Notes under the pieces: model-generated
Database searches by the model: none
Seen by the model: the letters and a program-made list of their open reading frames with translations, nothing else
What the model was told of the DNA's origin: nothing
Shown: positions 1,244 to 17,382 of the stretch, piece after piece
Layout: each line of letters opens with the position of its first letter
Position numbering within the stretch: position 1 is the first letter of the stretch
Program-made: the position numbers and the translations under genes
Source of the DNA: Nanobdellota archaeon
Lineage (GTDB): Archaea; Nanobdellota; Nanobdellia; Pacearchaeales; UBA12030
DNA length: 29,562 nt
NCBI GenBank assembly: GCA_022572525.1
Contig: JACZVS010000001.1
Span: forward strand, 1-29,562
Direction of reading: 5' to 3'

Positions 1244-1267
1244 GATATTCTTTATTCTTTAGCCTAT

Positions 1268-1377
1268 GCCTCGGTAGCTCAGTGGTAGAGCGCACGGCTG
1301 TTATGCCCTTTTGGAAAAAGCTCAACCAAAAGTAAGCAGAGACCGTGAAGTCGGCAGTTCGAGTCTGCCCCGGGGCG
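1268..1377 (+). tRNA. tRNA-Asn(GTT) with 38-nt intron at 37/38 (intron 1304-1341)
   Basis: Acceptor GCCTCGG/CCGGGGC, D arm GCTC/GAGC, anticodon stem CACGG/CCGTG, T arm GGCAG-TTCGAGT-CTGCC; central BHB helix CTGT/GCAG with 3-nt bulges TA|T and AG|A; no encoded CCA. Confidence 0.95.
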
Positions 1378-1379
1378 TG

Positions 1380-5168: not shown

Positions 5169-5202
5169 GCCCTTTCAAAATAACCTCTATTTCTAGTATG
5201 AG

Positions 5203-5314
5203 TGCGCTAACCGGGAGTCGAACCCGGATATTCAGCTTTTTCCTTTCCTTCTTTGTGGAGCTTCTTAAGAAGGCCCTTGGGAAGCTGACATCTTAGCCAT
5301 TGGATTATTAGCGC
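5203..5314 (-). tRNA. tRNA-Gly(CCC) with 40-nt intron at 37/38 (intron 5238-5277)
   Basis: Reverse strand: acceptor GCGCTAA/TTAGCGC, anticodon stem TCAGC/GCTGA, loop TT-CCC-A|intron|A, T arm CCGGG-TTCGACT-CCCGG; BHB central helix TTCC/GGAA; no encoded CCA. Confidence 0.93.
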
Positions 5315-14410: not shown

Positions 14411-14446
14411 AGAGAGAACCTTTTAGAAAAGGTTCATCAAAAAGAA
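14411..14446 (+). repeat. Palindromic interspersed element, copy A (occupies predicted 5' UTR of antiporter)
   Basis: AGA-GAACCTTTT-AG-AAAAGGTTC core (AGAGAGAACCTTTTAGAAAAGGTTCATCAAAAAGAA); TTTTTATA box at 14380-14387. Confidence 0.8.
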
Positions 14447-15505
14447 ATGTTTCCGAGTTTATGGATATCCCTTATTGCTTTAATTATCTCACTTGCTGTA
14501 TTAGTTAAGGGAGCAGATTTGTTTTTAGGTGCCGCCTCAAAGATTGCAAAGCATTTTGGAATTAGTGAATTTATTATTGGCTTGACCGTTGTTTCTGTCG
14601 GCACTTCTCTTCCGGAACTCGCAACCGCTATCACAGCATCTTTTGCAAAGACCCCTGAAATAATAATGGGTAATATTATTGGAAGCAATATTGCTAATAT
14701 TGGTTTAGTTCTCGGCATAACATTAATTTTTGTAACTGTTCTAATAAAGAAGCACGAATTTGATAGAATTTATATTATGCTGCTCTCTATTCTTTTATTT
14801 GCACTTTTTGCATCTGATCTTCAAATCTCAAGATTTGAAGCTGCGATCCTGCTGGCCTCCTTCCTATTGTATTTTGGTGGCTTCTTTAAGGTGAGAGAGA
14901 AGATTAAGCATTACAAACAATATTTTTCTTCTGCACTTGAATTAAGGGGCCTTCTCAGTTTAAAAAAACTGAGAGAGATAAGAGCGGCAAGGAAAAAAAT
15001 GCATGCTGGCGAGAGAATTTCCAAAAAGCTAGCAAGAGAGGCATATCTCTATGAAATGGTTAGAGAATCTGCAGTATTGGTAGCCGGAATTGTTCTTATT
15101 ATAGTAGGATCAAAGTTCACAATAGACTCTGCAGTTGATCTAGCCTTCTTCTTAAATGCTCCACAAGTAATAGTCGCTGCTTTGCTCATAGCTGTCGGCA
15201 CTTCTCTTCCAGAACTTTTTGTTAATCTTACCGGCATCAAGAAAGGCTACACAAAGATGGTTCTCGGCACTATTCTCGGCTCCAATATTTTTAATATCTT
15301 AGCAATAATAGGAATCGCGGGGATAATTAGTCCTATAGCTATTACAAAATCAACGCTAACGTTCTTGATTCCAGCCATGCTGATCTTTTCCTTTATACTC
15401 TTCTTTATCTTAAGGAGAGGTCACAAGATAGGAAGAATGGAGGGAATTTCTCTTACAGTACTATATGTGCTCTTCTTGCTAGGGCTCCTTTCCTCTTCCT
15501 TCTAA
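14447..15505 (+). CDS. Ca2+/cation antiporter, CaCA family (YrbG-like)
   Basis: Two alpha repeats GTSLPE followed by GNIIGSNIAN and GTILGSNIFN; ten hydrophobic segments. Confidence 0.93.
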   Translation: MFPSLWISLIALIISLAVLVKGADLFLGAASKIAKHFGISEFIIGLTVVSVGTSLPELATAITASFAKTPEIIMGNIIGSNIANIGLVLGITLIFVTVLIKKHEFDRIYIMLLSILLFALFASDLQISRFEAAILLASFLLYFGGFFKVREKIKHYKQYFSSALELRGLLSLKKLREIRAARKKMHAGERISKKLAREAYLYEMVRESAVLVAGIVLIIVGSKFTIDSAVDLAFFLNAPQVIVAALLIAVGTSLPELFVNLTGIKKGYTKMVLGTILGSNIFNILAIIGIAGIISPIAITKSTLTFLIPAMLIFSFILFFILRRGHKIGRMEGISLTVLYVLFLLGLLSSSF

Positions 15506-15671: not shown

Positions 15672-15682
15672 AATTGAGGAAA

Positions 15683-16381
15683 ATGCCAGAAAGTTTAGAA
15701 CGACTTGTGGAAGAGCATAAAAAATTAGATGCTCTTATAGGGGATGTTGAGCGAGAGCCATTTAATCCTGCTGTTGGAAATAAATTGAGAGCACTTTATG
15801 TTCATAATGCCGTTACAGATGCTGAAAATCTAGAAGCTGCTGCTGCAGCTACAATGGTAGTTGACAACTATGATGACAGAGAATTTTATGGACAGGTTTA
15901 TACTTTGCGTGGAGAAAAACAAAGAGAAATAGCCGACTCTGCAGAAGCAGATGCTGACAAGATTTACAATTCCCTTCCTGATGAAGCTCTTACTGGATTA
16001 GCAGCCAATGTATTGCCAGTTCCTAGTGATGGGGAGGCAGCTGAAGCTCATAGATCATATAGAAAAGTAAGTGACACACTTCAGGAAGGAAATGGAGAAG
16101 TGATTATAAAATACTTGAAGACTCTTCTTAAGGAAAGTTTCGTAGATGCCTTGGATGCTGATCGCCTTAAACTAGCTTATGGTGGAGTTGTATCGGTAAA
16201 ACGAGCCGAATTTTTGTCTAAGTTCGCAGGAAATGGTGGATTGGATCGTAGCAAAATTGTAGATTACTTGAAGAGTGTAAGAGCTGCAGGAGATGCTGAT
16301 AGGTTACAATTCTACTTTAGTCTAGGAATGGCTGCAGGAGATGCTGATAAAGAACAAAACCTGCATCTAGAAGCAGCTTAG
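15683..16381 (+). CDS. Orphan Ala/Asp/Glu-rich helical protein
   Basis: 232-aa ORF from ATG 15683 preceded by GAGG; followed by T-tract. Confidence 0.75.
   Translation: MPESLERLVEEHKKLDALIGDVEREPFNPAVGNKLRALYVHNAVTDAENLEAAAAATMVVDNYDDREFYGQVYTLRGEKQREIADSAEADADKIYNSLPDEALTGLAANVLPVPSDGEAAEAHRSYRKVSDTLQEGNGEVIIKYLKTLLKESFVDALDADRLKLAYGGVVSVKRAEFLSKFAGNGGLDRSKIVDYLKSVRAAGDADRLQFYFSLGMAAGDADKEQNLHLEAA
16283..16349 (+). repeat. Perfect 19-bp in-frame direct repeat (GCTGCAGGAGATGCTGATA at 16283 and 16331)
   Basis: Read directly; encodes AAGDAD twice, 16 codons apart. Confidence 0.9.
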
Positions 16382-16433: not shown

Positions 16434-16472
16434 AGAGAGAACCTTTTTTCTAAAAAGGTTCATTAAAAAGAA
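16434..16472 (+). repeat. Palindromic interspersed element, copy B
   Basis: AGAGAGAACCTTTTTTCTAAAAAGGTTCATTAAAAAGAA, near-identical to 14411-14446. Confidence 0.85.
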
Positions 16473-16475
16473 GGT

Positions 16476-16508
16476 CCTTTTCTTGGTTAAGCTTCTTTTC
16501 CAAAGAAG
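16476..16508 (-). repeat. Palindromic interspersed element, copy C (matches tRNA-Asn intron core)
   Basis: Reverse strand CTTCTTT-GGA-AAAGAAG-CTTAACC-AAGAAAAGG. Confidence 0.75.
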
Positions 16509-16509
16509 A

Positions 16510-17382
16510 TCATTCCTCAAGAGCTCTTACAAGCTTTGCCATTTCGCCTACAAATGAATCTACCCTATCGATGTATGCATCGATAGTTGATCCTTTTATT
16601 ATCTTGACTTCTCCATGAAGAATTTTGTGCATTAATGTGTACATTTCGCGGTAGAGATCAACATATCTCTTTTTCAGTTTTTTCTCTTTTGTAAATGTTT
16701 CATAAAGCAAGAAGGCAATGTGCTCTGGAGATGGAGGGGGTTTTCCTGCTGCCATTAAAGCTGCATGTGATGAGTCTACACATGCCCAGTAAAGGCCTTC
16801 TATTACAGCGAGCATCGATGTTCTACTTCTTGCAATATGTGCAGGACTTCTTCTTAGAGCAACATAAATAGCTTCTGGCGAAGGTCTTATCTTCCCTCTT
16901 TGCAGTAAAATTTTGAGTGGAGTGAAAAAGCCTCCAAAATCAATTAATGGCTCGCCGTAACGAATAATATTTATCACAACAGGCTCTCCTCTTATCATTT
17001 CCTCCCACCATGTTGTTAATCTTACTGTGTTTATGTGCAATTTTTTCGCATAACTTTGCGAAGCAACAAGGATTGCAAGCTCTTCTCGATACCAAGCAAC
17101 CATTTCAGCTGTCCAATCAACATTTGCATCATCAACAATTACAATGATGTCGATGTCACTTTTATGAGCTGCAGTTCCTTTAACTTGCGAACCAAATAGA
17201 ACTATGCTTTTAATGACTTCTGCACTAAATCTCTTGTAAACTTTAGCTGCAAAATCTTCAGCAATTCTTCTTTCAGGAGTTATTCTTCCAATAGGCTTTT
17301 CAACTTTCCTAACTCTTGGTTTTGAATGTGTACGCCTTTTTTTACTAATGATCTTTGCCCTTGCCCCTTTTTTCCTTCTCAT
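16510..17382 (-). CDS. Nucleotidyltransferase + HEPN-like fusion, paralog of 10706-12520
   Basis: LFGSQVKG-x5-SDIDIIVIVDD; LYWACVDSSHAALMAAG; shares LLQ.GKI.PSPEAI with the 604-aa protein. Confidence 0.82.
   Translation of the reverse strand: MRRKKGARAKIISKKRRTHSKPRVRKVEKPIGRITPERRIAEDFAAKVYKRFSAEVIKSIVLFGSQVKGTAAHKSDIDIIVIVDDANVDWTAEMVAWYREELAILVASQSYAKKLHINTVRLTTWWEEMIRGEPVVINIIRYGEPLIDFGGFFTPLKILLQRGKIRPSPEAIYVALRRSPAHIARSRTSMLAVIEGLYWACVDSSHAALMAAGKPPPSPEHIAFLLYETFTKEKKLKKRYVDLYREMYTLMHKILHGEVKIIKGSTIDAYIDRVDSFVGEMAKLVRALEE

Follow-up and report, generated by a model that had tools for sequence, protein, structure and literature searches.

The body of the 40-nt intron in a tRNA-Gly(CCC) gene (minus strand, 5238–5277 of the window, that is, of the whole 29,562-nt stretch analyzed) is a copy of a three-tract repeat that is scattered through the genome. 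An earlier note had described in this intron a pyrimidine arm and two purine arms that change in concert with those of other copies, and had read them as a possible bistable switch or triple helix. Judged by comparison with copies elsewhere in the family, the arms and the way they change together come from the repeat and did not evolve in the intron. Folding models make it probable that this is an ordinary BHB intron at position 37/38, with the repeat copy as its body, arm 1 paired to arm 3 as a closing stem, and no switch. In the informative relatives the third tract mirrors the second, which, at the level of sequence, is the signature of a class II intrastrand triplex. To our knowledge, intrastrand triplex motifs have so far been described from bacteria alone, and the origin and movement of archaeal tRNA introns are unsolved.

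The tRNA-Gly(CCC) intron and its closing stem

With introns permitted, ARAGORN detects four tRNA genes in the window. Introns occur in two of them, tRNA-Gly(CCC) (5202–5314, minus strand; 5′ exon 5278–5314, 3′ exon 5202–5237) and tRNA-Asn(GTT) (1267–1378, plus strand). The Rfam tRNA model RF00005 covers both genes end to end and scores tRNA-Gly at 49.9 bits over positions 1–71; removal of the Gly intron at 37/38 yields a cloverleaf tRNA by both ARAGORN and Rfam. The three-arm layout described earlier is present exactly as stated. Arm 1 is the pyrimidine tract CCTTCTT (intron nt 5–11; 5267–5273), arm 2 the purine tract AAGAAG (nt 12–17; 5261–5266) and arm 3 the third purine tract AAGAAGG (nt 25–31; 5247–5253), with the spacer CTCCACA between arms 2 and 3. 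Folding and the count of base types across copies identify GGG (5274–5276) and TCC (nt 19–21; 5257–5259) as the two halves of a 3-bp hairpin base, with a C.C mismatch between GGG and the core.

In the pre-tRNA, sequence reading combined with energy evaluation places a 4-bp central helix between exon UUCC (tRNA positions 32–35; 5280–5283) and intron GGAA (i35–38; 5240–5243), with a 3-nt bulge carrying a splice site on either side (CA↓A and AA↓A). Its computed energy, −14.4 kcal/mol, lies 1.1 above the minimum reached without constraints. Where the strict hBHBh′ motif has an outer helix, tRNA-Gly has a 3×3 loop (GGG/AAA, with GGG 5274–5276 on the 5′ side when arm 1 pairs arm 3) followed by a 7-bp stem, and the modeled BHB is thus a relaxed form. 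The same layout recurs in tRNA-Asn, whose 38-nt intron (1304–1341, plus strand) is the repeat copy CTTTT gga AAAAG C TCA ACC AAAAG, so that the earlier description of a 3×3 loop and 7-bp stem in both introns is borne out. Position 37/38, the two 3-nt bulges, the 4-bp helix, the anticodon stem as inner helix and the presence of EndA and RtcB genes all resemble the canonical archaeal BHB intron, from which the Gly intron differs in that its outer helix is replaced by a 3×3 loop and a 7-bp stem built from two repeat tracts.

The two pairings open to the pyrimidine arm are unequal. With arm 3, its partner in the minimum-energy fold, it forms the 7-bp closing stem, as the earlier note had it. Its hairpin with arm 2 is shorter than that note supposed: because the two arms abut without a loop, they allow at most 4 bp (CUUC/GAAG) and a UUAA tetraloop, prolonged by GGG/UCC across the C.C mismatch. 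The triloop typical of the family is absent, and the Gly copy is a worn version of the repeat that has lost it.

A bistable RNA switch would have arm 1 toggle between arms 2 and 3 in the pre-tRNA, gating the BHB and thereby splicing. The folds are indeed close in the isolated intron (−6.7 kcal/mol for arm 1:arm 3 and −5.9 for the hairpin), they are about equal when averaged over intron copies (median difference −0.2 kcal/mol; alternative fold minus hairpin −0.9, as against +1.3 and +3.5 in other copies), and compensatory changes occur across copies in both pairings. With the BHB enforced in the pre-tRNA, however, the closing stem leads by 3.6 kcal/mol in Gly (−14.4 versus −10.8; nearest-neighbor model) and by 7.9 in Asn (−13.3 versus −5.4), and once the BHB is formed the nearest-neighbor model gives arm 1:arm 3 a probability of about 0.99, with pair probabilities of 0.85–0.99 in Gly. 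In class A relatives the third tract pairs the first poorly (5 bp Watson–Crick), and no effector or regulatory logic is apparent for a constitutive tRNA. Moreover, the same module stands behind tRNA genes and in intergenic spacers, and so was not built for splicing control. The proposal of a switch that modulates splicing is thus unsupported, and we regard it as quite improbable.

On the ordinary-intron reading, the third tract of the Gly intron most likely does no more than close the stem on which the splice sites are displayed: by Watson–Crick pairing with tract 1 in the pre-tRNA it would form the 7-bp closing stem, which would hold the two splice sites in the BHB, whereupon EndA would presumably cut the intron and RtcB join the exons. 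Across copies, pairing of arm 1 (plus loop) with the tail has a median of −7.9 kcal/mol in introns and −5.3 outside them (Mann–Whitney p = 7e-4, for copies that are not independent). The intron and non-intron labels, taken from our family filter and ARAGORN calls, are imperfect; two copies labeled "other" that have strong closing stems are probable T-loop introns, and relabeling them would strengthen the trend. In the four repeat-bearing introns of this genome, the stem begins 3–4 nt past the 5′ splice site and is lengthened by covarying loop–linker pairs (GG/CC in both Asn and Lys, GA/TC in Pro), which suggests that introns tune a ready-made tract pair and have reinforced its use as a closing stem. 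The arm 1:arm 2 hairpin would then be the fold proper to the repeat and a minor conformer in Gly, where it may still matter, its GGG/UCC base having remained complementary. On this reading, whatever selects the mirror third tract of relatives would act on the repeat family as a whole, and more probably through single-stranded DNA than through RNA.

The genome encodes both enzymes. The EndA gene (contig C62, 2205–2783) specifies a 193-residue protein with domains PF02778 and PF01974. Among enzymes of solved structure, its nearest relative is the heteromeric Nanoarchaeum (N. equitans) endonuclease, in its catalytic subunit (E = 7.6e-38), followed by the M. jannaschii homotetramer (E = 1e-26). 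No second EndA subunit was found in the 76%-complete genome with PF01974, PF02778 or EndA protein queries; from sequence, tolerance for a relaxed BHB motif is therefore plausible for this enzyme. RtcB is encoded with a score of 551.9 bits. Within positions 729–3989 of C62, the EndA gene stands next to and divergent from a gene for a 298-residue RNase Z-like metallo-beta-lactamase that has the motif HWHGDH. Natural compensatory variants of the closing stem could show what a DPANN splicing endonuclease needs beyond the BHB.

Copies of the repeat in the genome and family

The DPANN genome that contains the window (G000; 579 kb in 100 contigs, 76% complete) holds about 20 copies of the repeat, four in tRNA introns, two in tRNA trailers and the rest in spacers, with about 15 non-intron copies in all. 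Four of the five introns that ARAGORN calls in its tRNA genes carry the module, and these similar introns sit in tRNAs of differing identity: Gly, Asn, Lys(CTT) and Pro(CGG). The gene labeled tRNA-Pyl(CTA) by ARAGORN (C43, 3967–4077) is a tRNA-Lys(CTT) by its anticodon loop CTCTTA, with an intron of about 37 nt from the repeat family. Two tRNA-Ala genes have the module directly behind them.

At least a dozen short spacers carry the module. There its opening triplet often coincides with the stop codon (TGA or TAA) of the ORF upstream, and an A-rich tract runs on to the next ATG. The upstream gene within 150 nt lies on the same strand in 11 cases and on the opposite strand in 5, a bias too mild to decide between action as RNA and as DNA. 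In many spacer copies the stop codon is thus itself the opening TGA/TAA of the hairpin, paired with TCA/TTA; examples lie at 16510–16512 of the window, at C18:3564, C96:2712, C96:219 and C54:3496 of this genome, and at loci L074, L076 and L104. Several copies in introns, and those in the tRNA-Ala trailers, likewise start with TGA.

Three non-intron copies of the window illustrate two subtypes. The copy at 16476–16512 on the minus strand opens at the TGA stop of the ORF at 16510–17382 and reads CTTCTTT gga AAAGAAG (hairpin, 16488–16512), then ACC and the third tract AAGAAAAGG (16476–16484), which is of the mirror type. The earlier note had cited it as 16476–16508, with its G matching in the same manner as in the Gly intron; the copy is real, but it reads on the minus strand and the G of its third tract stands in the mirror and not the direct position. 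The second subtype has a perfect stem: the copy at 16436–16474 (plus strand) reads GAACC TTTTT/AAAAA GGTTC, ATT and AAAAAGAAGG, and that at 14414–14447 (plus strand) lies immediately before the ATG at 14447. These two near-identical copies flank about 2 kb with ORFs at 14447–15505 and 15674–16381.

Beyond this genome, four sister genera contribute several dozen more copies (partly sampled; about 660 kb of additional sequence scanned). Their tRNA genes longer than 94 nt number about 44, most of their introns contain the module, and at least 29 sister-genome introns share the repeat. A stricter scan returned between 64 and 83 family copies according to the filter applied. For the 14-nt signature AAGCTNNACCAARA, the five family genomes have counts of 13, 17, 10, 6 and 5, compared with 0–1 for the reversed control and with 0–2 in most of 146 other genomes of the order.

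These figures bear on chance resemblance, by which low-complexity purine and pyrimidine sequence would show the pattern without common origin or constraint. The arms are short and of low complexity, and 90 of 20,000 dinucleotide shuffles of the Gly intron (0.45%) contain a 6-mer with two downstream complements, although none of 20,000 mononucleotide shuffles does. However, linker, mismatch and base pairs are common to dozens of copies, and the signature stands 5–17-fold above its control in all five family genomes. Chance is refuted by the family copies, the signature enrichment, the covariation of the hairpin base and the mirror test described below, and we give it almost no credence.

Two other readings of the repeat were set aside. 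A terminator or promoter does not suit copies with a TTCTTT arm and no T-run, distances to the next ATG of 9 to about 50 nt, or copies inside tRNA introns, and a tRNA-like minihelix of hairpin plus ACCA is ruled out by the ATC, ATT or C linkers of many copies.

Third-tract orientation and the triplex reading

The repeat is about 35–45 nt long. Its consensus runs from a 5′ triplet xyz through C, a pyrimidine tract, a triloop, a purine tract, C and the complementary triplet z′y′x′ to the linker A(C/T)C and the third purine tract. The outer 3-bp base is TAA/TTA in 17 copies, GCA/TGC in 11, TGA/TCA in 9, GAA/TTC in 6 and GGA/TCC in 4, with GGG/TCC in the Gly intron, and a C.C mismatch lies beside the core in 32 of 71 copies. 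These covarying outer pairs and the mismatch mark arm 1:arm 2 as a real, conserved hairpin.

The earlier claim of three-way covariation extends well beyond two introns: across 64 copies of the archaeal family, the third tract varies in step with the other two. Lengths of A-runs agree among tracts (4 with 4, 5 with 5, 6 with 6), and the internal G positions of the third tract shift with the C of tract 1. Where the arms are asymmetric, tract 3, read from the linker onward, is the mirror of tract 2 in all informative patterns but one. Tract 2 AAAGAAG is followed by tract 3 AAGAAA... in 17 copies, including window positions 16476–16484 and two copies on contig C54, and AAGAAAG by AAAGAA... in several. 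Rarer pairs are AAAAGAAG with AAGAAAAG (C72 of this genome), AAAAAGAAA with AAAGAAAAA (9 of 9 positions), AAAAGAAA with AAAGAAAA in one copy, the reciprocal AAAGAAAA with AAAAGAAA in another (8 of 8 positions), and GAAGAAAG with AAAGAAG, also in one copy.

The orientation score, taken on 41 unique patterns from the 64 copies, is the fraction of the expected tract that tract 3 matches when read from its beginning. Under the mirror reading, each copy's own partner scored 0.88 versus 0.61 for shuffled partners, and none of 5,000 shuffles reached the observed value; under the direct reading the scores were 0.665 and 0.526, with 1 of 5,000 shuffles reaching it. Since copies share ancestry, such copy-based p-values overstate the case, and the count of distinct informative arm types is fairer: seven mirror, one direct and two ties. 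Many tails carry on 3′ with a direct (Watson–Crick) copy, for example AAG-AAAGAAGG, and direct third tracts are found in a few copies that belong to different families within the order (L010, L019, L007). The earlier note had taken the covariation as selection on two pairings or on a triple helix. The mirror orientation of the informative copies is what a purine-motif triple helix would need, while the Gly copy, with a mirror match of 5, a direct match of 7 and 7 bp of Watson–Crick pairing to arm 1 that include GG with CC, is uninformative: its arms are themselves mirror-symmetric (AAGAA), and it can separate neither mirror from direct copying nor triplex from alternative pairing.

The mirror pattern raises the possibility that a purine-motif triplex, with arm 3 lying in the major groove of the arm 1:arm 2 duplex antiparallel to arm 2, is the selected function of the repeat, the Gly intron included. 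Tract 3 assumes its mirror form directly after the linker, the run lengths of A-only arms likewise track one another, a protein could not read mirror repeats alike, and copying does not make them. The order of tracts on one strand, pyrimidine–purine–purine, is CCTTCTT/AAGAAG/AAGAAGG in Gly and the same in the 64 family copies, and it is the order of class II intrastrand triplex motifs (PMC4666352). On the other side stand the symmetric Gly arms with their longer direct match, the shortness of the tracts (5–9 nt) and their A-richness, which belong to the weak kind of purine motif, the direct third tracts in the order's other families, and the 5–7 bp of shifted Watson–Crick pairing that near-symmetric arms retain. 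In addition, purine-motif triplexes reportedly arise in DNA but cannot do so in RNA (PMC4666352), and yet almost every intron copy has the sense orientation. We hold the triplex function only tentatively, at clearly less than even odds. Such a triplex would most likely form in single-stranded DNA, for example in replication intermediates or on the non-template strand while tRNA genes are being transcribed, and less likely in RNA. The mirror-pattern changes offer a concrete structural hypothesis that can be tested in DNA and RNA oligonucleotides.

Relation to known elements and intron turnover

A full-text literature search found no published description of such elements in DPANN tRNA introns or of archaeal tRNA-intron triple helices. 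The repeat combines two known kinds, a BHB intron family and an intrastrand triplex motif. New here are the lineage's mirror rule, the conserved mismatch together with the base that covaries, and a closing stem that is stronger specifically in introns.

Class II intrastrand triplex motifs are defined by three successive tracts on one strand: first pyrimidines, then the purines complementary to them, and last, at the 3′ end, purines that mirror the second tract. The bacterial BoxC, PIT and TMECO elements are of this type (PMC4666352, Holder et al. 2015; Hoyne et al. 2000, as cited in PMC4666352). Like these, the archaeal repeat is a short multi-copy element with its tracts in that order, has loops less conserved than its tracts, and presents a pyrimidine-motif design on the complementary strand. 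Whereas PIT, BoxC and TMECO are G/C-rich, intergenic and bacterial, the archaeal repeat is A/T-rich and a putative triplex former; it differs also in its C.C mismatch and covarying 3-bp base and in its location in tRNA introns, at tRNA ends and on stop codons. With REP/BIME and MITE-like elements it shares the form of short, structured, dispersed intergenic hairpins, often just past stop codons. Unlike REP/BIME, it has a third, mirror tract and copies inside tRNA introns, and the 76%-complete genome gave no match to a Y1 (IS200/RAYT) transposase.

Families of similar "transposed" BHB tRNA introns occur in Thermoproteales, according to the account of Fujishima et al. (2010) given in PMC4090602. 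The introns described here resemble them, as far as that account goes, in having near-identical bodies across tRNA specificities and in occupying the canonical position and T-loops (the latter in family genome G002); they differ in that the shared body is visible also outside tRNA genes, is three-tract, and belongs to a DPANN host of about 0.6 Mb. By this analogy, shared intron bodies would mean that introns are gained or exchanged as DNA. The intron bodies are the very repeat that also lies in intergenic spacers and downstream of tRNA genes, and intron gain is thereby linked to dispersed repeat DNA. It is conceivable, though we think it unlikely, that the triplex fold, formed in exposed non-template tRNA-gene DNA or, against current biophysics, in RNA, targets or drives the spread of the repeat to tRNA genes, insertions in anticodon loops and T-loops becoming new BHB introns; if true, this would make visible a mechanism by which archaea acquire tRNA introns.

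Turnover is suggested by comparison of related genes. The window's tRNA-Asn and tRNA-Ile(GAT) genes lie 1 nt apart (1378–1380), and its tRNA-Ile is intronless; in the tandem Asn/Ile pair of sister genome G001 (C82, 9121–9379), tRNA-Ile has a 44-nt repeat-bearing intron. By sequence, then, the presence of the tRNA-Ile intron differs between sister genomes at an orthologous gene. The tRNA-Gly(CCC) introns of G000 and G002 have common 3′ tails, and their repeat cores belong to different subtypes, GGG-C...C-TCC versus TGA-C...C-TCA. In two minus-strand tRNA genes of G002 (L084, near 11443, and L075, near 7178), a putative second repeat-bearing intron interrupts the T-loop, GGTTCAAA↓T...GAAAG↓TCCGGG, and the other intron lies in or near the anticodon loop; ARAGORN calls neither gene's T-loop intron, even after trial excision, and the assignment is a reading of the sequence. 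The tRNA-Pro(CGG) intron of G002 contains two inverted copies of the repeat (L083, 6540 on the plus strand and 6584 on the minus strand), and among the introns of this archaeal family its antisense copy is the only one seen.
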